DNA from: Candidatus Caldarchaeum sp.
Lineage (GTDB): Archaea > Thermoproteota > Nitrososphaeria_A > Caldarchaeales > Caldarchaeaceae
Length of the DNA: 15,238 nucleotides
Reading direction: 5' to 3'
Assembly (NCBI GenBank): GCA_038844785.1
Contig: JAWBRA010000033.1
Coordinates: 1 to 15,238 of the forward strand
The notes under the pieces were generated by a model. The model worked only from the letters and a program-made list of their open reading frames with translations. It did no database searches and was not told where the DNA came from. The translations under genes were made by a program, and so were the position numbers. The stretch's first letter is position 1, and each line of letters starts with the position of its first letter. Below are positions 1 through 15,238 of the stretch, in pieces.

Positions 1-416
1 ATGCTGAGAAGAGAATTCTGATGAAGTCCGTCAAGGCTGTTGAAGAATCTATGATGGAGATGGCTTCGTCGATAGTCTCTGAGACTGAGAAAAGGTACCC
101 GCAGTTCAACAAGGTGGTGGAGGAGCTTGGAATAACCGGAGAAAACCATCTGCTTTCCAGAGAGTCGCTGGCAGAGATAATACCTTACGTCGAAAGAAGC
201 AGGTCTTACAGACGTCTCAAAAAGTTCTTCGGCCTCTTCAAAGGCAGGAAGGGAGTCAATAAAATCTATAGCAAAACGGCGAGATGCGCGCTTTCAAGGC
301 TGACAACAGCAGTTCTCAAAAACACATGCCACAGAGCCCGAGACGAAGAACAACTGCTAAACAGAATCTGGAAGACTGTTAAGGAGACCCGGGAAAGGCT
401 GGAGGCGCCGGCCTAA
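1..416 (+). CDS. IS110-like / Nop-fold RNA-binding protein, C-terminal part (copy 1; frame open to the window's 5' edge)
   Basis: Frame is open from nt 3 (AEKRILMKS...). LGITG...LAEIIPYVERSRSYRRLKKFFGL...ARCAL...LLNRIWK resembles the IS110 Transposase_20/Nop C-terminal region (GIG...LAEIGD..RF...L..YAGL...LR..L...KL.R..W). A paralogue sits at the other end of the window. Family call is by motif recognition only. Confidence 0.65.
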   Translation, partial: AEKRILMKSVKAVEESMMEMASSIVSETEKRYPQFNKVVEELGITGENHLLSRESLAEIIPYVERSRSYRRLKKFFGLFKGRKGVNKIYSKTARCALSRLTTAVLKNTCHRARDEEQLLNRIWKTVKETRERLEAPA

Positions 417-549
417 ACAGCAGGGAAAAACCCCTCTGGAAAGGCCGGCCCATGGTTTATTAACTGTATCCTTTAGGATACGGTCCTTAACGTATTAGCC
501 GGCCTTTCTCATGGGTTTCTTGATGTTGTTCTGCTGGTTGCCTCCAGCC
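397..549 (+). ncRNA. Putative structured dual-guide RNA of element copy 1
   Basis: Nested stems: GGCTGGAGGC 397-406 / GCCTCCAGCC 540-549; CAGCAG 418-423 / CTGCTG 531-536; GAAAGGCCGGC 439-449 / GCCGGCCTTTC 498-508; apical hairpin ACTGTATCC-TTTA-GGATACGGT 463-484. These enclose a 13x13 internal loop (450-462, 485-497). The structure is conserved in copy 2. Confidence 0.7.
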
Positions 550-550
550 A

Positions 551-572
551 ACTCTCCCCTTGTTTTTTCCTT
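551..572 (+). terminator. Pyrimidine/T-rich tract after the stem-loop (possible archaeal terminator); homology to copy 2 ends here
   Basis: ACTCTCCCCTTGTTTTTTCCTT; a matching tract occurs in copy 2 (14796-14818, minus strand). Confidence 0.4.
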
Positions 573-629
573 CCAGAAGATTAAATACTGCACTCGCAGA
601 TAGTTCTAATCCGTAGGATGAGATCTGTC

Positions 630-858
630 TTACTTGACGTATTCTTTCAAACTCCCGTCCGGTCACAGCCGTGTTGTCGATGAAAGCCGTATCTTGCCCG
701 AAGTCGCCGAACTCGACCTCCGTGGTAGTTGTAAAAGCGTCCAGGTTTACTGATATGCTATCGTGATAGGGGAGCCTGAGGCTCCAGTCTCTAAGCCCAT
801 GGTACTTAACCAATCCCTCCATGGTGTGCGCAACCGCCCTCGCCTTCAAACCATCCAC
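630..858 (-). pseudogene. mvaD: (Di)phosphomevalonate decarboxylase, N-terminal fragment only (GHMP family, haloarchaeal PMD-like)
   Basis: KARAVAHTMEGLVKYHGLRDWSLRLPYHDSISV matches the MVD/PMD N-terminus (GLVKYHG, LPYHDSISV). Similarity ends after about 75 aa (..FERIRQV), whereas full-length enzymes are >300 aa. The ORF then runs antisense into the element RNA to a stop at 487. Confidence 0.8.
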
Positions 859-1434
859 CTACCTGAACTTTACCGTCTTAAATCGCAGGGCCAGGCTTCT
901 GGCTTCAGCGGCTACGTTCTCCCCGTCCAAAGCCATTCTGCAAAGCCTCGCAATACGTGACATCTGTTTCACCCCCATTCCTCTTCTCGTAACCTCTGAT
1001 GTTCCAACCCTAACCCCGATGTCAACGAGGATTCTTGATTTTTCAAGAAAGTCTCTGACTTTAACGCCTTCGCTTTCCTGATAGGGTAGGTAGACTTGAT
1101 GCGATTTGGTGTATCCGAGCTTTGTCTTGAACGGTTTGAGCCCGTTGTTTTCAAGCGAACGCGCGAGCTCAGCTGAGTTTTCCACAACCTTCTCAGCGTA
1201 CCTGTGTCCGTTCCGTCTCATCTCGTCAAGAGCCACCGCAAGAGCAGCAACCCTGTTGAAATGTATGTTGTCCACAAATTTGTGGAAGGCTGTCTCTTCG
1301 ATTTTTTTGGCAATTTTCTCGTCGTTCGTGAGAATGATGCTTCCCTGTGGTCCGAAGAAGGATTTGTGGGTGGAGCCGATAAGGACGTCAGTTCCGTCCT
1401 GAAGCGGTTTCTGAAATATTCTGACCGCACCCAC
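859..1434 (-). pseudogene. glyA: Serine hydroxymethyltransferase, C-terminal half only (5'-truncated)
   Basis: FQKPLQDGTDVLIGSTHKSFFGPQG (PLP-lysine motif), YAEKVVENSAELA, TKSHQV, GVRVGTSEVTRRGM. There is an in-frame stop just upstream (1438-1440), and the roughly 200 N-terminal residues are absent. Confidence 0.85.
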
Positions 1435-1820
1435 AAATCACAGAAGAAGGCTATAAACCATGGTCTCCGGCTGCTTCAAACATAATGAAAACCTGAGAAA
1501 TTATACGCAAGACAAACTAACCACCACCTATCACTCAAAAAATTCAGCCGCTACAACAGCTCATGCAGCTAACCATACCTATTCAGGCTTGATTCATTCA
1601 GATGCTATGAGTGCGGGCATGTAGACGTGTATTTTGTAGAGTAGCTGGTTTTGTTTGCAGAGGTATCCGCGGTCCCTGATACGCTTTCACCCCGGCTACT
1701 AAACTCCCATTAAATCCACCTTTCCAGACTCGGAAGTTTTACCGCCGTAATCACTGGATATTATTGTTGTGTATGCTGGAGGGCATGTTGATAAGCATCC
1801 GTAAAGCATTGTTTTGCCAG

Positions 1821-4800
1821 ATGGTTAGGATTAAGTCGATAGCGATTCAGGGCTTCAAGTCGTTCGGCAGTAAACGGACTGTGATAAAGTTTCCACTCGG
1901 GTTGACAGTCATAACCGGGCCCAACGGCGGCGGGAAATCCACTGTTTTGGACGCGATTAAGTTTGCTCTGGGAGAGCTCAGCGCCCACAACCTCAGGGCA
2001 GACCGTTTCTCCAAGCTTCTCCACGAATCCAGCAAGGGCCAGGACCAGTATGCCATGGTTTCTCTAACGCTCGACAACTCTGCACACACTTTACCCGTGG
2101 ACTCCGACGAAGCAGTGCTGACTAGACGTCTTTTTTCAACAGGTGAAAGCGAATACCTTGTCAACGGCAAAACCGTTTCTCGAAACGAGATGCTCACCCT
2201 ATTGTCCGCATCTAACATAAAACCCGACGGACTGAACCTCGTCACGCAAGGCTCAGTCGTAGGCATCGCCGAGATGACGAGCAGGGAGCTTAGACAGGTT
2301 TTGGAGGATGCCGCAGGCATTTCAGGCTATAAGAAAAGGCGGGACGAAGCTCTGAAAGAGCTTGAAACAGCTCAGAAAAACCTGGATGTGGCTAAAGCCG
2401 CTACGTCGGAGGTGAGAAACAGGGTGAAGCAGCTGGAGCTCGAGAGGAACCAGTACCTGCGCAAAACACTTGTTGATAGGGAGCTGGGCAGGCTTAAGTC
2501 TGTCTCCCTGGTCAACGAGGTTAAGAAAACACGGCTTGCACTGGCTCAGCTGGAGAGCCGGGCATCGGAGCTTGTGAACGGCCTCGCCGAAAAACAGAAA
2601 CATATCGGGGAAACGGTTGAAAAGTCCTCCATAATACGTAAAGAGGTTGAGTCACTCCAGCATCTGGGAGAGCAGCTTAACACCCGGCTGAGAGCGATCG
2701 AACGTCAGAAGTATGACAAAGAGTCTGAGAAAAACAGGTTGAAGGCTGAGATAAACTCCTATGAAATAAGCCTTCAACAGGCCGCTGAACACCGTAAAAC
2801 CCTGCTGGAGAATGTTCAAGAATGGAGGGAAAGGCTGGCTGCCTTGGAAGCTAGGCTCAGAGAAAAAGAGGCCGAAGCTGAGAAAGCCTACGAGAGCTAT
2901 AGGAGCGCGGAGGAACAGCTCAACTCTCTTAGGGCTGAAGTTGAAAAGGTTAGAGCGAGCTTGGAAAATGTCGAGGATAACTACTCCTCAAAGCTCGACG
3001 AGCTCAAATACCTCAAGCTTACTGACGACGGCAGGTCGCTTCTGCTGGAAAGCTTGGAAAAACAGATAGCTTCCAAGAAAAGCGAGCAAGAAGAGCTTCT
3101 GAAACAGTTTGAATACCTGCGTAGCAAGAGGCTGGATTTGGAGGCTGAGCTTGAGAAATGCAAGAACGCTGTTGCCGAGCTCTCGTCAACTCTTGAAACG
3201 TTTGAGAAACAAGCCGAGGCCACTAAAGCCGCGTTAACTTCCGAAAGATCGAAACTGGATGAAGCTGAAAGGATGCTTGACGAGCTGAGGCTTCTCAAAT
3301 CGTCTATAGCACAGCTGCTTGAGACACTACGGAAGGAAGACGACGGCAGAAAAGATGGAAGAACCGTGAAGACGTTGGGGGAGTTTTTCGGACAGAATCT
3401 CAACCCGGCTTTCAAAGCTGTACTGGGAGACTGGGTCAACGCAATACTTGTAGAGGACGTAGAAAACGCTTTCACGCTGGCCGCTAGGGCTGCCGAGCTA
3501 GGGCTTCCGCTAAAGATAGTGCCGGTGGACGATTCCAGCTTGGAGCCTGAAAAAATTATTGAACGTGTTACAGGCTCGCCGCCGCCGAGGCTCGTGGAGT
3601 CGGTGAAACAGCTCCATCCCACCGACAAAAACGTCGCAACATACGACGGCGTATACGTAAGCCAGAACCATACGGTCGTAGTGGTAGGTGATTCTGGCAA
3701 AACCCGTCTTTACACCCGTTTAGAAAACAGCCTGAATAAACTGGATACGCTGGAGGAAAGGCTTTCATCATCTAAATCGGTCATACAATCCAAGCTATCG
3801 TCGCTTGAAGAGTCTCTGAGACAGACAGCTCAAAAATCCGAGGAGGTTAAGAAAGAGCTGAACGAGAGACGGGTTGAACACGCAAGGGTTGAAGAAAGGC
3901 TGCGGGAAGTTGAGAAGACAACGGAGTCGCTGAAAAATAGGATAACTTCCTTGGAGAAGAGTTTGCAGAGTTTAGAGGATGAGAGGGAAAAGCTGAGGTC
4001 TACCGTTGCGGAGAAAAGCGACGAGCTGGCGTCTCTGACGGCTTTAAGGAAGGAGATGGAGAGGCTGAGGAGGGAGCTAAGGAAAGCTGAGGAGAAGCTG
4101 CGCAAACAATCTACAAACGCTTCAAACCTTTACAAAACATACTTAAACGTGGAAAAAGAGAAGGACTCTCTACAGCTTGAAATAAAAAACACCGTGGAAC
4201 GCATCGAAAACGCTGGCAGGGAGCTGGCGGTTCTGTCAACCCGTGAAGAAAAGCTTGCCGCAATGCTGGAGTCAAAGAGGATCGAGCTGGCCAAGGTTGA
4301 GCAGGAGCTGGCTAGAATGTCGGAAGACGAGAAAACATTGGAGATGGAGCTGGGCTCTCTCAAGGAAAGGCTGAACGAGAAAAACAACGTGCTCAAACAG
4401 GTTGAGGAAGGTTTGCAAAGGCTTAGGGATGAGGCTGCCGCCCTAGAGAGAGAAAACAGCAGCCTCATGGTTGAGAGGGTTAGGCTGGAGACAAGCCTGC
4501 AGGCTTTGAACGAACGTTTACAAGCGCTTTCGACTACTGCAGACGAGGAGGTTACAAGGCTGCCTCACGATCTTCTGCCAAGCTTGGAGGAGGAGTCGGC
4601 GGAAATCTCAGTCGTCAACCAGCTGGCGGTCATGCAGTATGACAGCATAATCTCAAATTACAAACTGCGTTCAACAAGGATAAACGAGCTTGAGATGGAG
4701 CGAAAACGCATACTCGACCTCATCGAATCCATTAATAGGGAGGAGGTGGAGGCGTTTGAGAAGGCCTTGGAGAAGGTGTCGAATTCGTTTAACTTCTATT

Positions 4801-5210
4801 TCAACCAGCTGACGGGGGGCGAGGGTTTCCTAAGGCTTGAGAATCCGGAAGACCCTCTCAACTCAGGTGTTGAGATGATTGTAAGGTTTGTTGGGAAGCA
4901 GGCTAGAAGCACCTCATCAGTGAGCGGCGGAGAAAAATCTGTGTCGGCCGTAGCCCTAATCCTAGCGCTTCAAGACCTCACCCCAGCCCAGTTCTACGTC
5001 TTCGACGAGATAGACGCCCACCTCGACGTCGTATACGTCAAAAACCTCGTAAACCTGCTGAAGAAAATGTCGTCCAAAAAACAGATAATCATAATAACTT
5101 TGAAGGACATCATCGCCGAACAGGCCGACGCGCTTTTCGGCGTCTACATGGTGAACGAGACATCGCATGTGGTGAGGACAAGGCTGTCGGAGGTGGTTGA
5201 GGCTGGATAG
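1821..5210 (+). CDS. smc: Chromosome segregation ATPase SMC
   Basis: MVRIKSIAIQGFKSF start, Walker A GPNGGGKS, Q-loop VTQG, two long coiled coils around a hinge, signature SGGEKS, Walker B/D-loop FDEIDAHLD. ATG 1821 is preferred over the upstream 1764 start. Confidence 0.96.
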   Translation: MVRIKSIAIQGFKSFGSKRTVIKFPLGLTVITGPNGGGKSTVLDAIKFALGELSAHNLRADRFSKLLHESSKGQDQYAMVSLTLDNSAHTLPVDSDEAVLTRRLFSTGESEYLVNGKTVSRNEMLTLLSASNIKPDGLNLVTQGSVVGIAEMTSRELRQVLEDAAGISGYKKRRDEALKELETAQKNLDVAKAATSEVRNRVKQLELERNQYLRKTLVDRELGRLKSVSLVNEVKKTRLALAQLESRASELVNGLAEKQKHIGETVEKSSIIRKEVESLQHLGEQLNTRLRAIERQKYDKESEKNRLKAEINSYEISLQQAAEHRKTLLENVQEWRERLAALEARLREKEAEAEKAYESYRSAEEQLNSLRAEVEKVRASLENVEDNYSSKLDELKYLKLTDDGRSLLLESLEKQIASKKSEQEELLKQFEYLRSKRLDLEAELEKCKNAVAELSSTLETFEKQAEATKAALTSERSKLDEAERMLDELRLLKSSIAQLLETLRKEDDGRKDGRTVKTLGEFFGQNLNPAFKAVLGDWVNAILVEDVENAFTLAARAAELGLPLKIVPVDDSSLEPEKIIERVTGSPPPRLVESVKQLHPTDKNVATYDGVYVSQNHTVVVVGDSGKTRLYTRLENSLNKLDTLEERLSSSKSVIQSKLSSLEESLRQTAQKSEEVKKELNERRVEHARVEERLREVEKTTESLKNRITSLEKSLQSLEDEREKLRSTVAEKSDELASLTALRKEMERLRRELRKAEEKLRKQSTNASNLYKTYLNVEKEKDSLQLEIKNTVERIENAGRELAVLSTREEKLAAMLESKRIELAKVEQELARMSEDEKTLEMELGSLKERLNEKNNVLKQVEEGLQRLRDEAAALERENSSLMVERVRLETSLQALNERLQALSTTADEEVTRLPHDLLPSLEEESAEISVVNQLAVMQYDSIISNYKLRSTRINELEMERKRILDLIESINREEVEAFEKALEKVSNSFNFYFNQLTGGEGFLRLENPEDPLNSGVEMIVRFVGKQARSTSSVSGGEKSVSAVALILALQDLTPAQFYVFDEIDAHLDVVYVKNLVNLLKKMSSKKQIIIITLKDIIAEQADALFGVYMVNETSHVVRTRLSEVVEAG

Positions 5211-5868
5211 CCAGCTTGCTGAGCAGGTTCTCTCCGCGCCGTGGCGGATATTGTTTGACGTCACACGTCTAGATAGGCTGAAGGTTTGGGAGATAAAGCT
5301 GAACGAGGTTTTAGCCGAGTTTTCCCAAGCACTCCGAACCTACGGATACATAGACCTAAACCTCTGCGGCATAGCTGTTCTCTCAGCCGCCACAATCCAT
5401 CGGATTAAGACGGAGAAGCTTCTTCAAGGCGATGTCCCGCCGAAACCTAAGCCGAAGCCGGAGATAAACATCCTCCCACCAATAGAGCTGCCTTTCAAAC
5501 CCGAGCTGATGACGGCCACCATTCAGGAGATAGTCACAGCCCTTCAGAAAGCGTTGTCGCAGTCGGCTAACAGAAAATCCGAAACAGCTCCTCCACAGGT
5601 TCAGGAAAACAGGATTGTTCTGGCGGAGTTTCTGGTCAAGATTGAGGAGGAGCTGGAGAGGTTTGTTGAAAAACTGTATCAGATATTTCAGCAAACTGAC
5701 ATGATTTCTTTCACGCAGCTTGTGAAGGACATGTCTAAGCTTGATGCGGCGAAAACATTCATCCTCCTGCTTTTCGCCGCTGCACGTAAATTTGTCGTGT
5801 TGATGCAGTTTGATGGAACAGACGACCTACAAATCTTAAAAGGTGAGGTTCTTGGAGCAGGCGCCTGA
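5197..5868 (+). CDS. scpA: Kleisin ScpA
   Basis: N-terminal VWEIKLNEVLAEF...LNLCGIAVLSAATIHRIKTEKLL and C-terminal winged helix (ISFTQLV..AKTFILLLF..LMQ). Overlaps the smc stop. Confidence 0.9.
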   Translation: MRLDSQLAEQVLSAPWRILFDVTRLDRLKVWEIKLNEVLAEFSQALRTYGYIDLNLCGIAVLSAATIHRIKTEKLLQGDVPPKPKPKPEINILPPIELPFKPELMTATIQEIVTALQKALSQSANRKSETAPPQVQENRIVLAEFLVKIEEELERFVEKLYQIFQQTDMISFTQLVKDMSKLDAAKTFILLLFAAARKFVVLMQFDGTDDLQILKGEVLGAGA

Positions 5869-6451
5869 CAGCAAAACGCTCGCTGAAGCGATACTCTTCG
5901 CGTCAGACAAGCCGGTTGGAATTAAAACGCTCCAGAGAGCGTTGCGTATGAGGTCGGACAAAAAGATACGGGAGATTCTCGAAGCTTTGAAGACGGAGTA
6001 CCGGGGCAGGGCGGTGGAGATCGTCGAGCTTGAAGGCGAGCGTTTTTACATGAGGCTTAGGCCAGACCTCGCCAATTTTGCGAAAAAGTTTACACGGAGG
6101 AAAGCATTGCCCCACGGAGTCCTGAAAACTCTCTCAACGATAGCTTACTATCAGCCTCTTCCCATGTCCACTTTAGCCGCCATCAGAGGTAAGGATGCTT
6201 ACAGACAGCTGAAGATACTCGTTGAAAGAGGTCTTGTTGAAACGGAGAAGTCTGGGCGGACTAGGCTGCTGAGGACAACCCAGCTTTTCGCCGACTTTTT
6301 TGGCGTGGAAAACAACCCCCAAGCCGTCCGCAGCTACATCAGCAAGATGCTTGAAGAAGTTGGGAAAAGGAACGGAATACATGAAACAGGTTTAAAGCAT
6401 GCTTGCAATCCTCTTTTAAGGGATGGTTCAGTGGCATACGGACATCCATAA
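5843..6451 (+). CDS. scpB: Kite subunit ScpB (start may be TTG 5852)
   Basis: AEAILFASDKPV, LKTLSTIAYYQP, AAIRG, L..RGLV, RTTQLFADFFG are typical ScpB motifs. Confidence 0.93.
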   Translation: MRFLEQAPDSKTLAEAILFASDKPVGIKTLQRALRMRSDKKIREILEALKTEYRGRAVEIVELEGERFYMRLRPDLANFAKKFTRRKALPHGVLKTLSTIAYYQPLPMSTLAAIRGKDAYRQLKILVERGLVETEKSGRTRLLRTTQLFADFFGVENNPQAVRSYISKMLEEVGKRNGIHETGLKHACNPLLRDGSVAYGHP

Positions 6452-6812
6452 AAGGAAAAAGACAGGGGCGAAATCCCATCCAAGCCGAGGTAAGAGGAAG
6501 AGAGAGCGTGGAGGCGAAGTACATCTCGCAGTCGTCGGCGAGCAGAAAACCGTGGTCAGAAAAGCCCGCGGCGGCAACATTAAAACAGCTATCGTCGCAG
6601 CAACCCATGCAAACGTCGCAATAGGTCCTGTCGTCAAAAGACTCGAAATACTCAGGGTAGTGTCAAACCCCAGCAACAGAGACTATGACAGACGTAAAGT
6701 GATAACGAAAGGAGCGTTGATAGAGACGGCTGAAGGGCTGGCGAGGGTTACGTCCTCACCTGGGCAGGACGGCACGGTCAACGCCGTCATCGTCAAGCAG
6801 GTGCAGGCTTGA
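6423..6812 (+). CDS. rps8e: 30S ribosomal protein S8e
   Basis: HKRKKTGAK..RGKRKRE.G, ARGGNIK, NPSNRDYDRRKVITKGALIET, VTSSPGQDGTVNA. Confidence 0.97.
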   Translation: MVQWHTDIHKRKKTGAKSHPSRGKRKRERGGEVHLAVVGEQKTVVRKARGGNIKTAIVAATHANVAIGPVVKRLEILRVVSNPSNRDYDRRKVITKGALIETAEGLARVTSSPGQDGTVNAVIVKQVQA

Positions 6813-7099
6813 TAAAAAAGGATGGTCTAATCATATGGCCTGCATACTTTGATGCAAGAAATTCACGCAGTGCAGGACGTCGCATCCCCATCCAGCTCGC
6901 AGCCCAAAGGCCTACTGTAGACGACCTTTTGAATGCCTGCAAAACCCTTGGATGGATGGCTGAAAAGGTTGAGGGAGCTTATCCAAGGACATGGTATTTG
7001 AAGACGGGATATTTGGTCGTCAACCCTGGTCGGAAGCTTCCGAAGAACGCTGTCGTGAGAAAGATTGCGGAGGCGCTGCAGAAGGTTGGCAAGAAGTAA
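6809..7099 (+). CDS. srp19: Signal recognition particle 19 kDa protein
   Basis: IIWPAYFDARNSRSAGRRIP...AYPRTW motif; conserved position after rps8e. Confidence 0.95.
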   Translation: MIKKDGLIIWPAYFDARNSRSAGRRIPIQLAAQRPTVDDLLNACKTLGWMAEKVEGAYPRTWYLKTGYLVVNPGRKLPKNAVVRKIAEALQKVGKK

Positions 7100-7340
7100 A
7101 CCCCCGTCATCCCGCAGGCTGTTGCTGTTGGGAGAAGCAGCTAGAGTAGGCGAGAGGACGATTGTTGTAAAGGCCCGTGTAGTACCTAGGCTTGCGGCCA
7201 GGGTCTTTGACAGCAGGGGGAGAGAAATAGGCTATGTCTCAAACGTTTTCGGGCCTGTGGCGAGCCCTTTAGTTTCCGTCAAACCTGTCGCTGAGAAGAC
7301 GGTAAAAGAGGGTGAGCCGTTATACACGGAAAAACATTGA
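7086..7340 (+). CDS. gar1: H/ACA RNP subunit Gar1/Naf1 (start uncertain, TTG 7086 chosen)
   Basis: VFDSRGREIGYVSNVFGPVASPLVSVKP motif; conserved gar1-tfb linkage. Confidence 0.9.
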   Translation: MARSKPPSSRRLLLLGEAARVGERTIVVKARVVPRLAARVFDSRGREIGYVSNVFGPVASPLVSVKPVAEKTVKEGEPLYTEKH

Positions 7341-8137
7341 AAACCTGCACATCATGCGGCAGCACCGAGATACGGTACGACAGCCAAGTCGGGGAAACTG
7401 TCTGCGCCTCATGCGGCGCAGTCATAGAAGAACGCACCCCGTCAACAACCCCCTCCAAGAAGATGCTCTTCGACGCTAAAGAAGGCGTTGGACCGAGACT
7501 TACCCAACTACTCCACGACCGTGGAATAGGAACGATCAAGATAGGTAGGCTTTCACCCTCCGAGGAAAAGCTTTTGACACGTCTGCTGAGCGAGGTCGCC
7601 TGGATATCCGACAAGCTTGCGCTGACAAAGCTGGTGGCTGAGAAGGCGGGGGAGCTGAGCAGGAAGGCCGTGGCCCAGAAAGTTTTTAAAAGGGCCCGCA
7701 GAGCCTCCGCGGCAGCGGCCGTTTTCATAGCCTCAAACCACTCCGGTCTGGCTAAAACGTTGGAGGAAGTTGCGTTGGCATCCGACGTCCCCGTCAACAT
7801 GCTCAGCCACGAGGTCTCGAGGATGGTTTTCGGCCTAAACATCAAGGTAAAGCCACCCGACTACGAGGCTTTGATAACACGTATCGGGAAAAACCTCGGG
7901 CTAGAGCCTTCAACGGTTGAGAAAGCCGTCAAACTATGCAACGACCTGTGTTTGGGGCGTTTGCTCATGGGCAGGAAACCCTCAGCCGTGTCAGCCGCAG
8001 CCCTCTACATAGCCTGCACAAACAACGGCTTAAAAATACCGTTTACCCGGCTGGCCTCTGCAGCAGGCGTCAGCGCTTTAACGCTCAGGAAAACAATCCA
8101 GCACATCCAAAGCATAAGCTTTAACAGGGGCTGTTGA
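7337..8137 (+). CDS. tfb: Transcription initiation factor IIB (TFB) family protein
   Basis: N-terminal Zn ribbon CTSC..CASCG, LLHDRG, and two cyclin repeats (AAAAVFIAS..KTLEEVA; GRKPSAVSAAALYIAC..AAGVSALTLRK). Confidence 0.92.
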   Translation: MKTCTSCGSTEIRYDSQVGETVCASCGAVIEERTPSTTPSKKMLFDAKEGVGPRLTQLLHDRGIGTIKIGRLSPSEEKLLTRLLSEVAWISDKLALTKLVAEKAGELSRKAVAQKVFKRARRASAAAAVFIASNHSGLAKTLEEVALASDVPVNMLSHEVSRMVFGLNIKVKPPDYEALITRIGKNLGLEPSTVEKAVKLCNDLCLGRLLMGRKPSAVSAAALYIACTNNGLKIPFTRLASAAGVSALTLRKTIQHIQSISFNRGC

Positions 8138-8162
8138 CGAACGGGCCTGCGTCGGAGTTACA

Positions 8163-8170
8163 TATTTAAG
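8163..8170 (+). promoter_or_regulatory. Possible TATA box for TFEbeta-rlmE
   Basis: TATTTAAG in the short intergenic gap, about 35-40 nt before the 8205 start. Confidence 0.35.
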
Positions 8171-8204
8171 TTATGCCTGCTAACCAATATGTTACGAGGA
8201 CATT

Positions 8205-8561
8205 TTGCCGGCGAAGCTTTCCAAGCTTGAGGAAAAGGCTCTGATGCTCCTGATGCAGCATGAGGGGGGGATGCTGCAGTCGGAGCTGTGGCATAAGCTG
8301 GGGGTTACCAGCCGTGAAGGCTCTAGGATAGGGATTAAGCTGGAGAGGAAGGGCTATATCAAGAGGGTTAAAGCCTTCTCGCACGACCGTTGGACACGCC
8401 GTCTAGTCCCGTTGATAAAGCAGGTGGACATCTCCCCTCTTCTGGGAACCCCATGCCCCTCATGCGTCTACGACCCTGTCTGCGGCCCCCGGAGCGAGCC
8501 TCACTACAAACAGTGCGTACTGCTCGAGGAGTGGCTTAACTCAAAAAGTGAAAGCAAGTGA
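8205..8561 (+). CDS. TFEbeta / RPC34-like transcription factor (winged helix plus C-terminal 4-Cys Fe-S domain)
   Basis: wHTH GMLQSELWHKLG..SREGSRI..KLERKGYIKR followed by PCPSC....VC..........CVLLEEWL, the RPC34/RPC39-type 4-Cys pattern. Adjacent to tfb. Confidence 0.85.
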   Translation: MPAKLSKLEEKALMLLMQHEGGMLQSELWHKLGVTSREGSRIGIKLERKGYIKRVKAFSHDRWTRRLVPLIKQVDISPLLGTPCPSCVYDPVCGPRSEPHYKQCVLLEEWLNSKSESK

Positions 8562-9256
8562 CGAAGGAGCAGTGGCTTCAACGCCGCAGCGAAGACCCGT
8601 ACTGGCGGATGGCCAAGGAGAGAGGGCTGCCTTCCAGAGCAGCTTTCAAGCTTGAGGAGATACAGAGACGGTGGCGTGTGATGCCGAAGGGTGGCAGGGT
8701 TCTAGACCTCGGCGCAGCTCCAGGGGGCATGACGGCGGTCGCCGCAGAGGCGGTTGGAGAAGAAGGGCTTGTGGTGGCTGTTGACGTCGAGCCTTTGAAG
8801 CTGGAAAGGCCAAACATAGTTTTCATAAAAGCCGACGTGTTCGAGCACAGGCTGGTGCGGGAGCTGGAAAACGTTCTGAAGGGCGGGTTTTTCGACACAG
8901 TCATCTCAGACCTTTCACCCCGTCACTCAGGAGACTACGACCTGCTGGTCCAACAGCAGTCAGACCTGCTAGCAAGAAGCAGGGAGCTAGCCTACAGGTT
9001 TCTGAGACGCGGCGGCAACATGGTTCTCAAAGCCTTCGAACACCCAACCCTAAGACCCTTCGAGAGAGAAACCGCAACAAGCTTCCGAAAACTCGAAAGA
9101 TACGTGCCGAAGTCATCGAAGAAAGGCAGCTCTGAAATATTCCTAATATACCTCGGGTATAAGGGCGGTGTCCAGCAGGGTTTGCCGGTGAATATACAGA
9201 ATACATGTCCAGAAAAGCTTACAGCAGTTAACACCGCAAGTACCTTTAGAGAGTAA
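8558..9256 (+). CDS. rlmE: 23S rRNA 2'-O-methyltransferase RlmE/FtsJ
   Basis: DPYWRMAKERGLPSRAAFKLEEI, VLDLGAAPGG, VISDLSP, VLKAF, SSKKGSSEIF (K-D-K-E tetrad). Confidence 0.95.
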   Translation: MTKEQWLQRRSEDPYWRMAKERGLPSRAAFKLEEIQRRWRVMPKGGRVLDLGAAPGGMTAVAAEAVGEEGLVVAVDVEPLKLERPNIVFIKADVFEHRLVRELENVLKGGFFDTVISDLSPRHSGDYDLLVQQQSDLLARSRELAYRFLRRGGNMVLKAFEHPTLRPFERETATSFRKLERYVPKSSKKGSSEIFLIYLGYKGGVQQGLPVNIQNTCPEKLTAVNTASTFRE

Positions 9257-9289
9257 AGCTTAAAGCATTTTAAAAGCGGTATAATAACA

Positions 9290-9529
9290 TTGAACAACGA
9301 AAATGTAGATTGGTTTGAGTGGGCCATCAAACGGTCTTTAGCTAGTCAAAAGGAAACGGGCAATCTGATAAAACATTTGGATGAGATTGGAAGACAGAAA
9401 GAGTTTTTGTTCAAGGTTTTTAAAGAAACCCGTTTTGGCTGTCTATTTTCCGTTTCAAAGGGAGAAGTCGAGATAGCAAGGGGCTCTATACATCTTTCGG
9501 AAAAAGATCTGTTCCACACATCTGGCTAG
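9290..9529 (+). CDS. Hypothetical protein in low-GC segment (possibly a gene fragment)
   Basis: 79-aa ORF with TTG start and protein-like composition; no recognised motif. Confidence 0.35.
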   Translation: MNNENVDWFEWAIKRSLASQKETGNLIKHLDEIGRQKEFLFKVFKETRFGCLFSVSKGEVEIARGSIHLSEKDLFHTSG

Positions 9530-9576
9530 GTTTACCCAATTCGACCACCCTTAGGTATTTTGAATCTTTCAACGGT

Positions 9577-9813
9577 GTGAAGCTTGTAATAATAGAGGAC
9601 AGAAAATATCAGAACTACATAGCTCTGCAACTGAGGCCATCCGCTAAGCTTAGAAGGTATAGAGACGGTCTCTGCTTCAACGTTTACTGCGAATACGGAC
9701 AGTATAAAATATCTGACGGAATAGACATCATTGTTGTAAAAAATATTAGTGAGGTTAGGGAATTTGCCATAAAATTATACGAAAAATTGTGCGAATTTGC
9801 TGAAAAATTATAA
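9577..9813 (+). CDS. Hypothetical protein in low-GC segment (possibly a gene fragment)
   Basis: 78-aa ORF with GTG start and AT-rich codons; no recognised motif. Confidence 0.4.
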   Translation: MKLVIIEDRKYQNYIALQLRPSAKLRRYRDGLCFNVYCEYGQYKISDGIDIIVVKNISEVREFAIKLYEKLCEFAEKL

Positions 9814-10102
9814 AGGCTGCAGAGGACCATCTGGTTCCGGTTCCTGCCGAAGCAGCCTGTACTGATCATTCGTTTCCTTACGTACAACATAATATTCTTC
9901 TACCACATCTAATTCTGTCCGTAATCTGTCTTCTAGTGAATTCATCCGAATGGCTTGACACATGTATTAAAACATCGAACTCAGGCATGTCCTTCCCTTC
10001 TTTAGTGAGAGGTGTAAATATCACCGCAGAATGTTTCTCTATTACTTCTTCAGTTCGGAGGGTTGGGTCGCCGCCATAAAAGTTTCAACAAGCATTTCAT
10101 GG

Positions 10103-11287
10103 TTATCCCACAAAAGATTTTGCAAGCCGTAAAAGCTCATTCGGCGGCGCGTTTGTTTTAACGGCGGTTGGGTCAACATGAGTTGTCGAAGCGCTGTATC
10201 CCAATTCTCTCAAAGCTGAAACTAGGTTTAACGGCGAGGGCGGCTTGCCTCCCGCAACCCTCGCAAGCTGGTCGACGGGATAGAATCCAACAACGTCCAC
10301 CTCCTCGACGATTTTACGGAGAGTTTTTAAAGCGTCAGGGTATTCGCCAGCCTGTTCAACCATTTTCTCAACTGTAGCAGTATCGTGGAGTGGTCCGAGC
10401 CATGCAGGCCCTATGACGCTTGCTTTTCCGCCGCACGTGGAACACGTTGCTCCGGGCGGCGATGTTATGGGGTGCTGGCTGATGTGCAGGTTGCTGCACG
10501 CCTGTATCCATCCAACGTTCTTCAACAGGCTGATGCATTTTGAACGCCCTCGCAAAACCTTGAAGAAAACTCTGACGAAGTGGCGGTGGTAGACGGAGAG
10601 GATGGGAGAGGGGGCTATGTTGAGCGAGCAGCCTCGGAGGATGACGTGTGATGCGAGAAGACGTAAAGCCGCTTCTTTGGCGAAGAAACTTTTTCCAGCC
10701 AAAACACCGTATTTTCTCAAGCATGTTTTGGGATGGTTGCCGACGAGCGAGGCGAGGTCTGTCGCCGAAACACCCAAGTAGCCTCCCGTCTCGCAGGCTC
10801 TGAGACTGTTTTCCACAAACCTTGCAGGCGGGCCCACAGGGTCCACGTCCACGTAGTAGAACCGTGTCCCCGGGTTGCTGTGGGCTGTGAGAAAGACGGC
10901 CGCATCCCCCTGATGGACCTCCACCCTGTCTAAAACGTTATTGTGCTCTGCGTTGAGCTTCATGACCTTGACGGCGTTCGGGTTTATGTCGTTCAACACA
11001 GCCTTCGACACGTTGGACGTCTCGAGAAGAAGCCTGATCGCCCTCACTCCAGAGCCTGCCAAAGGCTCGGCCACAACAGCCTCCCTGTCAAAAACCCTGG
11101 CGAGCAACACCGTCAAATCCCTTGAAAGGCTTGAGAAAGGGTTGTAGAAGACAGGCGACTTGGTTGGCGCCGTCGGCTCACCCTGCCCTGTCGTCGGAAA
11201 GACAGGCGCGACAAACCTAGCCCTTCCCTCAACATACCATCTCACCCGAAACCCAAGCTCGGCTGAAAGCGTCAGCTCCTCAGCCAT
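10103..11287 (-). CDS. trm1: tRNA (guanine26-N2)-dimethyltransferase Trm1
   Basis: PVFYNP...RDLTV, EPLAGSGVRAIR, NDINP, VDVDPVGPP, VSATD, CLRKYG, GPAWLGPLHD, STTH..PTAVKTNAP. Confidence 0.95.
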   Translation of the reverse strand: MAEELTLSAELGFRVRWYVEGRARFVAPVFPTTGQGEPTAPTKSPVFYNPFSSLSRDLTVLLARVFDREAVVAEPLAGSGVRAIRLLLETSNVSKAVLNDINPNAVKVMKLNAEHNNVLDRVEVHQGDAAVFLTAHSNPGTRFYYVDVDPVGPPARFVENSLRACETGGYLGVSATDLASLVGNHPKTCLRKYGVLAGKSFFAKEAALRLLASHVILRGCSLNIAPSPILSVYHRHFVRVFFKVLRGRSKCISLLKNVGWIQACSNLHISQHPITSPPGATCSTCGGKASVIGPAWLGPLHDTATVEKMVEQAGEYPDALKTLRKIVEEVDVVGFYPVDQLARVAGGKPPSPLNLVSALRELGYSASTTHVDPTAVKTNAPPNELLRLAKSFVG

Positions 11288-11820
11288 TCTTTCATCACCC
11301 CGTAAACCAGCCCTGGAATCCTGTCCCTGTTCCCAAAATCCAAAACGTAAAGGTGTTCGCCGGCGGCCCGCCTGACCTCTTCGACGACGGGATGGCGTGC
11401 CGAGAAATGTATTGTTAGCAGCGATGGCTTCCCAGATTTGAGAAGCTCTCTAACGGCTTCGACAAATGGCTGGCAGAACAGCTCCATAGGCCCCACCTCA
11501 TCAACAAACACAGCTTCAGACCTCTCCAACGCAGCCCTCAAGCTTCCCACACCCACCTCCAACATGTTCTCCAAGCTTACACGGTATTTTCCAACCTTGG
11601 GCCCCGACGCTATTTCGACGCTGGCGAGAACAGCTGTTTCGCCGGAGCCGATGTCGCATATCTCGAAACCATACCTCACGCCAGACCTCCGAATCTCCCG
11701 TGTGTAAAACCCTCCGACGGCGAAGCTGTCTTTCCTCAGCATTTCGACTACTTTTACCAAGGCGGTTGTTTTGCCCACGCCCGGCCTTCCTGTTAGGGCC
11801 GCTGTCCTAGAAGTCGTCAA
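11272..11820 (-). CDS. THEP1/NTPase_1-family nucleoside triphosphatase
   Basis: LTGRPGVGKTT, GGFYTREIR, VGKYRV, FVDEVGPMEL, LLTIH. Confidence 0.92.
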   Translation of the reverse strand: MTTSRTAALTGRPGVGKTTALVKVVEMLRKDSFAVGGFYTREIRRSGVRYGFEICDIGSGETAVLASVEIASGPKVGKYRVSLENMLEVGVGSLRAALERSEAVFVDEVGPMELFCQPFVEAVRELLKSGKPSLLTIHFSARHPVVEEVRRAAGEHLYVLDFGNRDRIPGLVYGVMKEWLRS

Positions 11821-12457
11821 GCCTGCTCTGCTTCAGCCTCTCCAAAGTCTTCCAGCCTTTCCTGACTTCTGCCGGCAGGTTGTTTTCGGAGAGCTTGTCC
11901 GCAAGCCATCTACGTGTCCTCGGGTCGGATGGATAGCCGGAGCCGAAGTCTCCGTAAAGCTCCCTCAGCCTTTTGACATGCCTGTCCCTCTCCACCTTAG
12001 CTATTATTGATGCCGCCGCAACCAAGACGTTTCTCCTATCACCCTTCACCATACAGCGTATTTCCGCACGGTGTTTGACGTAGCTGAGTATTTTCCTCCG
12101 TGCTTTGGCGACGTTTCTGTCAGGCGAGTCTACGAAGACTCTGTCGGGCTTGAGAGCGTCGACTAGCCGTGCAATCCACATGTATTCCAAAGTGTTAAGC
12201 CCCTCACCGCCGTTTACCCTAAGGCTTGAGTCAACAGACCAAGGCTCCAAAACCACCGTCTTAAAAACCAGCATTTCCGACAGCTTCTGATAAAGCTCAA
12301 ACCTTCTGAGCGGGGTCAGAGTCTTCGAGTCGGCGACACCAAGGCTTCTCAAGCTTCTAGCTTGAGGCGGGGAGGCCAACACGGCTGAGATAACCAAAGG
12401 GCCTAGGACGGAGCCTCTGCCAGCCTCGTCCACGCCGCACAGCTTTATCTCAGCCAT
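11807..12457 (-). CDS. rnhB: Ribonuclease HII
   Basis: GVDEAGRGSVLGPLV, DSKTL, VAAASIIAKVERD, GSGYPSDP, and a C-terminal PIP box QSRLDDF. Start taken as ATG 12457. Confidence 0.96.
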   Translation of the reverse strand: MAEIKLCGVDEAGRGSVLGPLVISAVLASPPQARSLRSLGVADSKTLTPLRRFELYQKLSEMLVFKTVVLEPWSVDSSLRVNGGEGLNTLEYMWIARLVDALKPDRVFVDSPDRNVAKARRKILSYVKHRAEIRCMVKGDRRNVLVAAASIIAKVERDRHVKRLRELYGDFGSGYPSDPRTRRWLADKLSENNLPAEVRKGWKTLERLKQSRLDDF

Positions 12458-13145
12458 GGTAGACCGCCGCAACCATTACATGGTCTTTTTCATAGGGCTC
12501 CAGCTCAACTCTGTCAACAACTTCAAACCCTTTCTCGGCAAGGGTTTTAACCTCCCGCTTCACAATCACTTCAGGCTCTTCAACGCTGTCTATGCTCCTC
12601 GCCTTCACGGCAAGCAAAACCCCACCTCCTTTCTTCAACATCAACCTCGAGTTAGCTGCTACGATATGTGCTTGAGATGGCTGAGCCACGTCGGCGTAAA
12701 CCACGTCGACAACCCCTACTATAAAAGAATAGTTCTCAGGCCTTGTTGCGTCGTCGAGAATAGGGACGACGTTCCTCCTCCTCTCAGCCACGTTCCTTAA
12801 GAACTGCTGCATGACCTTTGGCGAGAAGTCTACTGCGTAGACCCTGCCTTTCTCTCCCACTATGTCGGATACGTGGGATGCCGTGGTGCCCGTGGCGGAG
12901 CCGAGGTAGAGGACGCGGCTGCCAGGCCTGATGAATATCTCTCGGATTTCTTTTGTGATGGCTGCAGCCAGCTTGCTTCTGTAAGGGTTCCAAACCCTGT
13001 ACTCGACGTTTTCAAACCTGACGAGCTGCTCGCCGTAGACGGAAAAGCCTTCCGCAAGATTACGTGTTGCAAGCCTCATGCCTTCAACGTCCTCAACCCA
13101 GTAAACCCCCTCAAAACTCTGATGCTTAACGACCGACAGCTTCAT
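12450..13145 (-). CDS. flpA: Fibrillarin-like rRNA/tRNA 2'-O-methyltransferase
   Basis: VYGE, YRVWNPYRSKLAA, VLYLGSATGTTASHVSD, DVAQP, KARSID, LEPYEKDH. Confidence 0.97.
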   Translation of the reverse strand: MKLSVVKHQSFEGVYWVEDVEGMRLATRNLAEGFSVYGEQLVRFENVEYRVWNPYRSKLAAAITKEIREIFIRPGSRVLYLGSATGTTASHVSDIVGEKGRVYAVDFSPKVMQQFLRNVAERRRNVVPILDDATRPENYSFIVGVVDVVYADVAQPSQAHIVAANSRLMLKKGGGVLLAVKARSIDSVEEPEVIVKREVKTLAEKGFEVVDRVELEPYEKDHVMVAAVYHG

Positions 13146-14326
13146 CGCCTAACCCTTCTCCTGCGGCCTGGCTTTTCAACCTCTTTTTTCGGAGGCGTAG
13201 CATACTTCTTTTTTATCTCCTCAACCCTCTGCTCCAGCAGGCTTCTAAGCTGACCGCTCCTATCCTCTTTGCTAAAGTAGTCTATTCTCGCCGCGATGCT
13301 GATTTTCGCCGCCAAAACCCTCGCTATCTTACCCCTCTGCCAGCGTGGAGCGCTGTGGACGAACGGATGCTGGAAAATAACGCCATGCTTGGGTGCGCCA
13401 CGGCCTGTCTTGAAAAACCTAAACAACGCTTTCTCAGCCCCCAACACCTGTATAGTGCTAGCAGGCAGACGGGCGAGCTTCTCAAGACCGCCCGCCAAAG
13501 ATATCAGCCTGCTGCCTAAAACAGGCCCTGCAACCGCAGAGAGGTTGGGAGCCTCAACAGCCATCAGCTCTTTAATGTATTCGCCTATTTTCTCAGCCAG
13601 ACGGCTTATCTCAAGCCCCAGCGAGGCCAGCGACGCTATCCTAGCCATGTCTCTGTCGCCAACGCCGCCTCCGACAGATTTTTCAGCGGCTTCGGAGACA
13701 CGTTTCAGGACATTCGCATCCAAAACCTTCGAAACCTTTTCCACATCAATTTTATCTCTCACGAGCGGTGTGGACACAAGCTTAAGATATGTGTCTGGGT
13801 CTTCAACTATGCTCGCCAGCTCTGGAAAATGGACTTCATACCACTCCCTAACCCTTGCAAACACCTGGTTCTTCATCCTCTCCAAGTCGTCGAAAGCTCT
13901 TACCGCGTGGACGATGTGAAGGTCTCTTCTCCCAGCCTCGGCGAGAATACGCTGCCTGGCCAGCTCAGCCGCCACATCCCTCACAAGTTTTCTATAGTTT
14001 TCAAGCTCAGCGTCTGACAGAGCTGTCTCTATGTCCAGCGGCCGTGCTTCGACAAGCTCCAGCCTCGCCCCCATCCTCTCAGCATGTTTCTGGAGAAGCT
14101 TTCCCACGTTTTCATCCCAGAAGAACAGGGTCTCGACTCCTTTTCCACGGAGGTTGTTGAGGAAATCTTCGACGTACTGTGTAGGCATCTCCCCGCCCTT
14201 CATCCGCGTCAGAACGCTGGCTATCTCGGCTGGTGCGGCGGCGAAAGGCTTGAAGCTTATCAAACCACCATTTTCGTCGAACGCCGCCAGCCCGACAGCA
14301 GTCATCAACACATAAGCCTGCGACAT
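13142..14326 (-). CDS. nop5: C/D box RNP core protein Nop5 (Nop56/58)
   Basis: REWYEVHFPEL, APNLSAVAGPVLGSRLISLAGGL, PASTIQVLGAEKALF, PKHGVIFQHP, RGKIAR, ARIDYF. Confidence 0.97.
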   Translation of the reverse strand: MSQAYVLMTAVGLAAFDENGGLISFKPFAAAPAEIASVLTRMKGGEMPTQYVEDFLNNLRGKGVETLFFWDENVGKLLQKHAERMGARLELVEARPLDIETALSDAELENYRKLVRDVAAELARQRILAEAGRRDLHIVHAVRAFDDLERMKNQVFARVREWYEVHFPELASIVEDPDTYLKLVSTPLVRDKIDVEKVSKVLDANVLKRVSEAAEKSVGGGVGDRDMARIASLASLGLEISRLAEKIGEYIKELMAVEAPNLSAVAGPVLGSRLISLAGGLEKLARLPASTIQVLGAEKALFRFFKTGRGAPKHGVIFQHPFVHSAPRWQRGKIARVLAAKISIAARIDYFSKEDRSGQLRSLLEQRVEEIKKKYATPPKKEVEKPGRRRRVRR

Positions 14327-14355
14327 CTCGCCAACGATTCAGTGTATGGGCTGGC

Positions 14356-14362
14356 ATTTAAA
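14356..14362 (-). promoter_or_regulatory. Probable TATA box of the nop5-fibrillarin operon
   Basis: TTTAAAT on the minus strand, about 30 nt upstream of the nop5 ATG (leaderless-type spacing). Confidence 0.5.
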
Positions 14363-14370
14363 GGAGATAC

Positions 14371-14606
14371 GTGGTGGGCGGGATATCATCACGGTGTAAG
14401 TGTTGCGGCAACATGTACGACACCAGCCTACCGCTAGCAAAATGCACAAAATGCGGACATGTCTGGAACACCACAAGTAAAATGAAGTGGATAACCTGCC
14501 AAACTGCCGCAGCAAAGCAGGCAGGCTGGTAACAGCCAAGAGAAGGTTTCCAGCCACCATCAAACCCCGTCAAGCCTCATCAAGTCCTAGTTCGGACGGA
14601 TACTAG
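14371..14606 (+). pseudogene. Small Cys-rich zinc-ribbon gene with a one-base frameshift
   Basis: AAGGAG then GTG 14371 gives ...RCKCCG...KCTKCGHVWNTTSKMKWITC. One extra base at ~14500 would give TC-x-NCRSKAGR, completing a further CxxC pair and reading to TAG 14604-14606. As sequenced it stops at 14532 (53 aa). Confidence 0.5.
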
Positions 14607-14677
14607 CCCTGGCCGGATTTGAACCGGTGTCTCAGGGTCCAGAGCCCTGCATCCTTAACCACCTAGACGACGGGGCT
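14604..14677 (-). tRNA. tRNA-Gln (anticodon CTG), intronless, CCA not encoded
   Basis: AGCCCCG-TC-GTCTAGGTGGTTAAGGAT-G-CAGGG-CTCTGGA-CCCTG-AGAC-ACCGG-TTCAAAT-CCGGC-CAGGGCT-A forms a cloverleaf with A1-U72 typical of archaeal tRNA-Gln. It has two A.C mismatches. Confidence 0.92.
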
Positions 14678-14702
14678 GTCAACCGTGTAGATTTTGATAC
14701 GG

Positions 14703-14710
14703 TTTTTATA
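14703..14710 (-). promoter_or_regulatory. Probable TATA box of tRNA-Gln
   Basis: TATAAAAA on the minus strand, 26-33 nt upstream of the tRNA 5' end. Confidence 0.55.
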
Positions 14711-14819
14711 CATACGGGTTCTGAAACCCATCTAACACACCGCCCCCATAAACAAAGAAAAAACAGCAAAACAATACATAAGCAAGACATACAAAAAGGA
14801 AAAAATGGAGGGGAGAGTT

Positions 14820-14969
14820 GGCTGGAGGCCGCCAGCAGAACAACACCTAAGAACACCCCCGGGAAAGGCCGGTAACATATCTCTGCCGTATCCTATAGGA
14901 CACGGAAATCTAAATAGGCCGGCCTTTCCAGAGGGTTTTTCCCTGCTGTTCAGGCCGGTGCCTCCAGCC
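14820..14969 (-). ncRNA. Putative structured dual-guide RNA of element copy 2
   Basis: Same nested stems as copy 1 (14960-14969/14820-14829; 14919-14929/14862-14872; hairpin CCGTGTCC-TATA-GGATACGG 14886-14905). The 13x13 internal loop differs: CCTATTTAGATTT (14906-14918) and CAGAGATATGTTA (14873-14885). Confidence 0.7.
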
Positions 14970-15238
14970 TTTCCCGGGTCTCCTTAACAGTCTTCCAGAT
15001 TCTCTTTAGCAGTTGTTCTTCGTCCCTTGCTTTGTGGTGTGTGTTTTTCAGAACCGTTGTTGTCAGCCTTGAAAGCGCGTGTCTCGCCGGTTTGCTGTAG
15101 TTTTTGACCGTTCCCTTCTTGCCTTCGTAGAGGCCGAAGAACTTTTTGAGACGTTTGAAAGACTTGGTTCTTTCAACGTATGGTATTATCTCTGCTAAGG
15201 CCTCTTTTGCAATTAGATGGTTTTCTCCCGTTATTCCA
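14950..15238 (-). CDS. IS110-like / Nop-fold RNA-binding protein, C-terminal part (copy 2; runs off the window; absent from the ORF track)
   Basis: Manual translation GITGENHLIAKEALAEIIPYVERTKSFKRLKKFFGLYEGKKGTVKNYSKPARHALSRLTTTVLKNTHHKARDEEQLLKRIWKTVKETRERLEAPA*; 75/95 identical to copy 1 with no indels or stops. Confidence 0.7.
   Translation of the reverse strand, partial: GITGENHLIAKEALAEIIPYVERTKSFKRLKKFFGLYEGKKGTVKNYSKPARHALSRLTTTVLKNTHHKARDEEQLLKRIWKTVKETRERLEAPA

Follow-up and report, generated by a model that had tools for sequence, protein, structure and literature searches.

A single-loop hairpin as a candidate guide RNA of a mobile element in the Caldarchaeales

The two ends of a 15,238-nucleotide (nt) stretch of DNA from Candidatus Caldarchaeum sp. 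(assembly GCA_038844785.1, contig JAWBRA010000033.1, positions 1 to 15,238; hereafter the window) raise the question of what a long hairpin with a replaceable internal loop does behind the gene for an IS110/Nop-like protein. The window is the entire contig C33 of the source genome G000, an assembly of 1.74 Mb in 57 contigs, and carries at its two ends truncated copies of one repeat, pointing inward. Each copy consists of the final 95-137 codons of an open reading frame (ORF), followed first by a long hairpin that includes the stop codon and next by a T-run (Table 1). Here we argue that the hairpin is the guide RNA of a Caldarchaeales mobile element and that the two strands of its internal loop specify the site of insertion, an explanation to which, taken as a whole, we assign a probability of roughly 0.65.

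The evidence for this reading comes chiefly from two elements for which both junctions and an empty site were resolved, one on contig C12 of the same genome and the other copy 2, at the right end of the window, the left part of which is contig C46 (1895 down to 1). In the C12 copy, the left junction (TTAACATATT) agrees with the 3' loop strand, CCTTAACATATT, and the right junction (TATTTTTATAC), 2.4 kb away, agrees with the 5' strand in reverse complement, TATTTTTATACG. The corresponding empty site is uninterrupted in the relative G007 (...AAGCTTTTAACATATTTTTATACCGGC...) and is also empty, with a diverged sequence, in G004. The target of this element reads TTAACA-TATT-TTTATAC, and TATT is present at both junctions. 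For copy 2 the left junction reads TATTTAGA-CG/TTGGCC and the right junction, at window 14372/14371, CCACCA/CG-TATCTCC, the slash marking the element boundary. Empty sites in G006 and G002 read ...TATTTAGA-GC-TATCTCGTTTAAATGG..., with GC as the core where the copy 2 junctions have CG, and diverged empty sites are found in four more genomes, so that 6/6 other genus members examined are empty (L063-L068); the insertion itself is common to G000 and G004. In copy 2 it is the 5' strand that equals the left half, and the 3' strand that accounts for the core and the right half, and as such the roles of the strands are swapped relative to the C12 copy. Because the loop is pseudo-symmetric, strand roles are swappable, which is equivalent to the opposite orientation of the element on its target. 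The copy 2 guide of G000 has a U opposite the core G, where its orthologue L003, in G004, has a C that pairs exactly. An element of 2.4-2.8 kb lies between the half-sites in each of the two mapped cases. These exact 10- and 11-nt loop matches at both junctions, with the junctions independently defined by empty sites, show as far as sequence comparison reaches that the loop strands equal the halves of the insertion site, and that the loop encodes the target.

The original prediction for this locus, made from the window sequence, had proposed one variable, pseudo-symmetric guide loop whose strands read opposite DNA strands around a short core, and the two elements with empty sites bear this out. 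It had also named targets. That for copy 2, GAGATAT-AT-CTAAATA, agrees with the real site GAGATA-CG-TCTAAATA at 14/16 positions and differs from it at the remaining 2/16. The fixed palindromic AT core that it assumed must be given up, the cores found being CG in copy 2 and TATT in the C12 copy, and the 16-mer predicted for copy 1 does not occur as one piece, its halves lying at window 634-643 and 1453-1463.

Matches between loop strands and flanking DNA extend to other members of the family. The flank-match test covered 40 copies (80 loop strands) out of 61 sequences, with 1.44 kb downstream of each; the 21 sequences dropped were failed parses, L032 (the same as L030), the C4 contig-end copy (the same as C37) and partial hairpins. 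An exact downstream reverse-complement match of at least 9 nt was found for 16/80 own strands, compared with 3.3% of 3120 other-copy pairings, and of at least 10 nt for 8/80 compared with 0.9%, the 80 strands being not fully independent since orthologous pairs (L003 and copy 2; L015 and L026, with similar loops) were kept. Downstream matches in the forward sense were found for 0/80 own strands.

The hairpin itself is conserved in its stems and variable in its loop. In the window, the two hairpins of ~150 nt have predicted folding energies of -90.3 kcal/mol (copy 1) and -97.3 kcal/mol (copy 2), and 0/200 shuffled sequences were as stable (z scores in Table 1). Direct reading and the loop parser (13/13) both confirmed the earlier observation that the two copies end in the same long stem-loop with a 13+13-nt internal loop of replaced sequence, and reading of the sequence likewise confirmed that the G.U pair of the apical stem is placed differently in the two copies. 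Within G000, BLAST matches to the hairpin or to the 3' end of the ORF are spread over many contigs and frequently lie where a contig stops. The 22 hairpin loci taken from this genome divide into three subfamilies by apical stem. From the 44 related loci retrieved, the 39 with an ORF 3' end were examined for architecture, and the same architecture was present in 39/39. The shared plan has an outer stem of GGCTGGAG/CTCCAGCC followed by ACAGCAG/TGTTGT, then, further inward, GAAAAACCC/GGGTTT and GGCCGG/CCGGCC, and finally a large loop and an apical hairpin. The loop parser failed or chose another hairpin at several loci; among those parsed successfully, the paired loop strands are mostly of the same length (13/13, 12/12, 15/15, 17/17, 18/18, 20/20), and both strands share one frame, for example ATGTC-N8-AAACA, AC-N8-TAA or CC-N7-ATTA. 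Across the family the hypervariable part is ~7-8 nt, rather than the 9 nt first proposed, and is followed by 3-5 semi-conserved bases. Mean pairwise identity in the loop core is near random, at 0.30-0.34 in group A (n=8) and 0.34-0.56 in group B (n=5), compared with 0.64-1.0 in the loop flanks and 0.80-0.90 in the stem, the latter figure being taken from group B only, as the group A stem and 60-nt outer-segment figures were spoiled by register shifts.

The outer helices covary. RNAalifold recovered only 13 pairs from the MAFFT alignment, in which the subfamilies are out of register, and 38 outer-helix pairs were therefore placed by hand from the copy 1 fold, with the apical stem and loops excluded from the count. 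In an alignment of 53 sequences these 38 pairs are 89.2% paired, compared with 29-51% for a slid partner, a comparison somewhat favourable to the structure, which was derived from one of the aligned sequences. Changes on both sides occur in 19/38 pairs, and compensatory cells number 98, compared with 29.6 in shuffles (0/500 reach 98). Pairs of the G.U type are frequent (column pair 36/199, for instance, is G.U in 39/53 sequences), which fits an RNA of the ORF strand. By eye and uncounted, a T-run is visible after the hairpin in most of those rows of the 53-row alignment that reach far enough.

The element ORF encodes a protein of ~285 amino acids (aa), of which a full-length homologue, P0003, is encoded on contig C14 (301 aa from stop to stop). 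A word-index search with P0003 found 71 homologues, all named hypothetical and often several per genome, in metagenome-assembled genomes of Caldarchaeum, Nitrososphaerota or Thermofilaceae, and a profile search of 1.84 billion representative proteins found 192 at E<=1e-3; as far as these searches reach, the family does not occur outside Caldarchaeales and Nitrososphaerota. P0003 matched no Pfam family at E<=1, Pfam Nop included, and single-sequence and profile searches of Pfam, NCBIfam and PDB sequences returned nothing meaningful, including no sequence match at the level of Tas proteins. A search of the whole of G000 with PF01548 gave 0 matches despite its more than 20 element loci; PF01548 matches are present in 4/41 genomes of the order, and 2/10 distant family members score 14-15 bits with the IS110 Pfam models against a cut-off of 29. 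Structure is more informative. An AlphaFold (AF2) model, with a predicted local distance difference test (pLDDT) score of 87.8 and a predicted template-modelling (pTM) score of 0.82, has as its best Foldseek match the TIGR-TasR structure 9mty (9mty_A; E 1e-6, TM 0.62-0.64, full length), and next the IS110 recombinases IS621 and ISCro4 (8wt9, 8wt6, 9t56; E ~1e-5, TM 0.54-0.60 over ~300 columns); TasH is matched only in part, and structural neighbours in the ESM Atlas bear PF02371 and PF01548. The model thus shows a predicted RNase H/RuvC-like N-terminal domain, a coiled coil and a Nop/Tnp-like C-terminal domain in a TasR/IS110-like fold, and these full-length matches agree with the IS110/Nop-like character first read from the ORF. 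In an alignment of 44 sequences D47, G48, D71, F81, R95, R96, D116, A192, L220 and L264 are invariant, and D24, H26, R27 and Y226 are at least 90% conserved. The family motif ADVHR resembles GLDVHK by eye, and hhalign lined up RYPNFKKVVEE with HFPELASIVED of the host Nop5 at a probability of 2%, a lead only.

In the mechanism that we propose, the ORF and the hairpin would share one transcript, driven by a TATA-like box immediately before the reading frame and probably ended by the T-run, and the protein would bind the pseudo-symmetric internal loop as a dimer. Each loop strand would offer ~8 programmable bases: one would carry the top-strand sequence of the left target half and pair with the bottom strand, and the other would be complementary to the top strand of the right target half. 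The two would meet at or overlap a core of 2-4 nt, which would afterwards stand at both ends of the inserted element, and a site of 16-17 bp would be specified in this manner without an adjacent motif. The assignment of strands to halves could be swapped, and a swap would flip the element relative to its target. By analogy with the seekRNA or bridge RNA of IS1111/IS110, we infer that the RNA is made and bound, and that the protein performs both RNA-guided insertion and excision.

Several observations weigh against this explanation. Both mapped elements come from one subfamily and one genus. Upstream forward matches are not clearly enriched (5/50 compared with 3.3%), L018 has no flank match within 3 kb for either strand, and at L007, L025 and L030 the second half-site was not found within 3 kb. 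Two sets of copies (L027/L029/L030 and L004/L011/L014), each with members in three different genomes, directly follow one shared host gene per set, with the ORF start overlapping the upstream stop (TAGATG) in one of the two groups, and look vertically inherited or fixed rather than mobile. A donor-binding loop was not found: within the two mapped elements no match of at least 9 nt to the terminal 22 nt of either end occurs, only chance-level 8-mers, although a weaker or split donor match may exist, and the ends of the C12 and copy 2 elements are unlike each other. In the protein, no serine is invariant or 90% conserved in the 44-protein alignment. The presumed position of the catalytic Ser-Gly of IS110 reads K-G in most members. 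The third acid of the DEDD set may be replaced, KTARND standing opposite KSDRSD in an hhalign alignment to a truncated IS110 copy, a lead only (probability 0.2%).

The single loop, the lack of a detected donor loop, the unlike ends, the absence of a conserved serine and the best match to TasR together keep alive a different reading, in which the element is an RNA-guided homing nuclease: a TasR-like protein would cut the empty allele, the element would be copied in by homologous repair, and the insertion would split and so protect the site. The closest structural relative is indeed a nuclease, and the apparent loss of the IS110 nucleophile points the same way. The copies, moreover, are old (75-90% inter-copy identity) and mostly site-unique, with guides that still match their flanks, as would fit selection for homing, and the copy 2 insertion is common to two genomes. 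However, each mapped case has its core (TATT or CG) at the left as well as the right junction, which homologous repair does not predict, homing alone leaves unexplained the origin of more than 20 loci with different guides in one genome, and one DEDD acid seems to have been lost; we regard this reading as unlikely. Far less probable again is a TIGR-Tas-like regulator or defence system, in which the guide would lead the protein to promoters or foreign DNA for binding or cleavage and the nearby matches would be regulatory targets. The matched sites are AT-rich and promoter-like, that of copy 2 lying ~40 nt upstream of the nop5 start and two bases before TTTAAA, and catalytically dead stem-loop TasR proteins repress transcription according to 10.64898/2026.09.09.750476. 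But the half-sites are split by an element of 2.4-2.8 kb, so that the intact target is absent from the genome that carries the guide, which counts against a regulatory or defensive role, as does the ending of many contigs of the G000 assembly in the element repeat.

The remaining alternative is that there is no guide function at all, the hairpin being a terminator or end structure whose loop drifts freely and whose flank matches arise by chance. Both the loop and the intergenic flanks are AT-rich, and 4/4 extra loci lack a second match. This is nevertheless contradicted by exact 10- and 11-nt matches at both empty-site-defined junctions and by a flank-match enrichment that depends on orientation. 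An equal strand length kept across subfamilies speaks against it too, and we give this alternative scarcely any credence. That the hairpin is a guide RNA specifying the insertion site is as such the reading that we retain. A bolder extension of it is that the elements form an undescribed archaeal RNA-guided lineage between IS110, TIGR-TasR and Nop5, in which a serine-less protein of ~285 aa with a single 8+8-nt guide and no donor loop inserts kilobase-sized cargo DNA; we hold this to be a tentative proposal with somewhat less than an even chance of being right.

Comparison with described systems places the family more precisely. IS1111 and IS110 (PMC11187229, PMC11208160 and PMC11208158) resemble it in a noncoding RNA downstream of the gene, as in IS1111, in two internal-loop segments that can pair with the target halves on opposite strands, about a short core that recurs at both junctions, and in a guide that matches the flanks of its own element; according to PMC11187229, a guide of the IS1111/IS110 type has to match not only the target but also the flanks of the donor. 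The predicted RuvC-like domain, coiled coil and Tnp/Nop-like fold are also shared. Unlike IS110/IS1111, the family has no PF01548 or PF02371 match, has one loop, with a donor-binding loop not found, has no conserved serine and has element ends that are not conserved between the two mapped copies; it is archaeal (Caldarchaeales), and tRNA genes are among the cargo of its elements. Stem-loop TIGR-Tas systems with TasR, as described in PMC12045711 and 10.64898/2026.09.09.750476, share a pseudo-symmetric unit with two spacers of ~8-12 nt reading opposite strands of adjacent DNA, a guide that may overlap the 3' end of the tas gene and a tolerance of swapped spacers, and 9mty is the best structural match, at fold level only. 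In contrast to TIGR-Tas, no tandem guide array is present: every locus examined has one hairpin per gene, and Tandem Repeats Finder (TRF) found none in the element parts of the window or in L002. The element is instead a dispersed repeat with more than 20 loci in G000, its spacers match the flanks of its own insertion, and they overlap or abut the core, whereas tigRNA spacers are reported as non-overlapping. Archaeal Nop5 with box C/D small RNA (sRNA) has the same domain order and a two-guide internal-loop layout. Unlike Nop5, the family has no Pfam Nop match, and the host has a genuine nop5-fibrillarin pair within the window; unlike box C/D sRNA, the guides match DNA junctions rather than rRNA or tRNA as RNA, and canonical C/D boxes were not seen by eye. 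The family belongs within the IS110/IS1111-TIGR-Tas kind, and is set apart by its single loop and the lack of a conserved serine.

Table 1. Positions of the element copies and associated features in the 15,238-nt window
Feature	Position	Strand	Support or remark
Copy 1 element ORF, 3' fragment, 137 aa	3..416	+	Cut by contig end; stop 414-416
Copy 1 long 3' hairpin, candidate guide RNA	397..549	+	Last 20 nt of ORF overlapped; fold z -7.92; helix covariation, 53 sequences
Copy 1 P1 stem	397-405 with 541-549	+	GGCTGGAGG paired with CCTCCAGCC
Copy 1 5' loop strand CCATGGTTTATTA	450..462	+	Read directly; parser; reverse complement = 11 nt at 1453-1463
Copy 1 apical stem-loop	463-484	+	
Copy 1 3' loop strand CCTTAACGTATTA	485..497	+	Forward match 9/10 to TTGACGTATT at 634-643
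T-run right behind copy 1 hairpin	563..568	+	Likely archaeal terminator
Copy 1 conserved tail	569..643	+	Common to copies on C12, C7, C55, C6; ends TTGACGT(ATT)
ATAAACCATGG, candidate right junction of copy 1	1453..1463	+	Reverse complement of copy 1 5' loop strand
Host nop5 and fibrillarin	12450-14326	-	PF01798 (E 1e-65); PF01269
TTTAAA	14361-14356	-	Two bases (CC) past copy 2 right half-site; 30 nt before ATG at 14326
Copy 2 target, core and right half-site	14364..14371	-	Core CG 14371-14370; TATCTC 14369-14364
Copy 2, in-window part	14372..15238	-	ORF 3' end, hairpin, tail, tRNA cargo, right end
tRNA-Gln(CTG), cargo within copy 2	14604..14677	-	Between hairpin and mapped right end
Copy 2 long 3' hairpin	14820..14969	-	Fold z -8.13
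Copy 2 3' loop strand CAGAGATATGTTA	14873..14885	-	Reverse complement = core + right half-site (CG-TATCTC), one U opposite G
Copy 2 5' loop strand CCTATTTAGATTT	14906..14918	-	Equals left half-site TATTTAGA
Copy 2 ORF 3' fragment, 95 aa	14950..15237	-	

The surroundings of the two window copies add to this picture. The genes just downstream of the copy 2 site are the host nop5 and fibrillarin genes, so that the promoter of the genuine nop5 is occupied by an element that is itself Nop-like; TATCTCGTTTAAATGG is conserved in the empty relatives. The junctions of copy 1 are partly resolved, with the left end off the contig and G004, the closest relative, rearranged at this place. Similarity to G004 (L054) resumes at 1454, within the 11-nt match to the reverse complement of the copy 1 5' strand, and the 9/10 match to the 3' strand forms the end of the conserved tail. 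The interval 634-1450 holds two gene remnants, the C-terminal part of an SHMT gene truncated at its 5' side and the N-terminal part of a likewise truncated MVD-like gene; an in-frame stop occurs at 859-861. A paralogous region of 77% identity to this segment is present on contig C4, and in run X12, from another sample, the counterpart of window 631-1423 lies inside a 35-kb contig, at a different place. Since the SHMT/MVD-like segment sits elsewhere in another sample, copy 1 carries a captured or rearranged segment. On contig C7 of G000 (~64200-64291, minus strand) there is a solo tail of the copy 1 type that has no hairpin and is preceded by TTAAGGTATTAG, identical at 11/12 positions to the copy 1 3' loop strand plus the next base, and this solo tail is perhaps a deletion derivative, perhaps a footprint.

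Cargo and further repeats were observed in and around the elements. Together with its flanks, tRNA-Gln(CTG) is present at five places in G000 (C33, twice on C26, C35 and C1), in 3/5 cases directly behind an element hairpin. Rfam matched only the tRNA in the window, and gave no matches on L001, L002 and L062. In L015 (~1364-1373) and L026 (~1128-1137), from two other genomes, the 3' loop strand holds 10 nt of a tRNA anticodon stem-loop (Val-TAC and Thr-CGT, respectively). The matching site marks the margin of a half tRNA gene, and within the element, between the hairpin and that margin, stands an intact tRNA gene (Val-TAC, Thr-TGT), a layout that points to anticodon loops of tRNA genes as insertion sites and to a replacement tRNA brought along as cargo. 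A repeat of ~390 nt in the left part of the C12 and copy 2 elements (L002 ~2585-2975, G000:C12 41384-41774) has some 40 BLAST matches genome-wide, is mostly found away from any ORF, and could represent either a non-autonomous relative or a small element in its own right. The 450-700 nt upstream of the ORF in L001 and L002 are GC-rich and contain a hairpin, GCCACCCC-N12-15-GGGGTGGC, with a terminal loop that varies between copies; beside it stands GGGGAGGGTTTGGCTGGAG, the inverse complement of the end of the 3' hairpin, which is shared within subfamilies only.

What is understood to date of RNA-guided insertion by bridge RNA or seekRNA comes from IS110/IS1111 of bacteria. The literature searched, as far as its accessible text extends, contains no description of this archaeal family or of such a single-loop guide, and the supplementary tables on TIGR-Tas may list these proteins as array-less Tas-like loci. 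If the bolder reading of an undescribed RNA-guided lineage is true, the system could be a very compact reprogrammable insertion tool. The family offers a compact, single-loop, thermostable candidate for programmable DNA targeting, and the element accounts for the repeats at which many contigs of the G000 assembly end. A survey linking IS110 to Nop5 (10.1101/2024.06.21.599552) met archaeal IS110 only as scattered acquisitions from bacteria and left room for an unsampled archaeal clade. The present family escapes the Pfam models used in such surveys, and combines a structure nearest to TasR with transposon-like behaviour, the target being named by one loop. It could fill the place of the archaeal clade lacking from the IS110-to-Nop5 evolutionary scenario, and provides a test case for the kinship of IS110, TIGR-Tas and box C/D systems.

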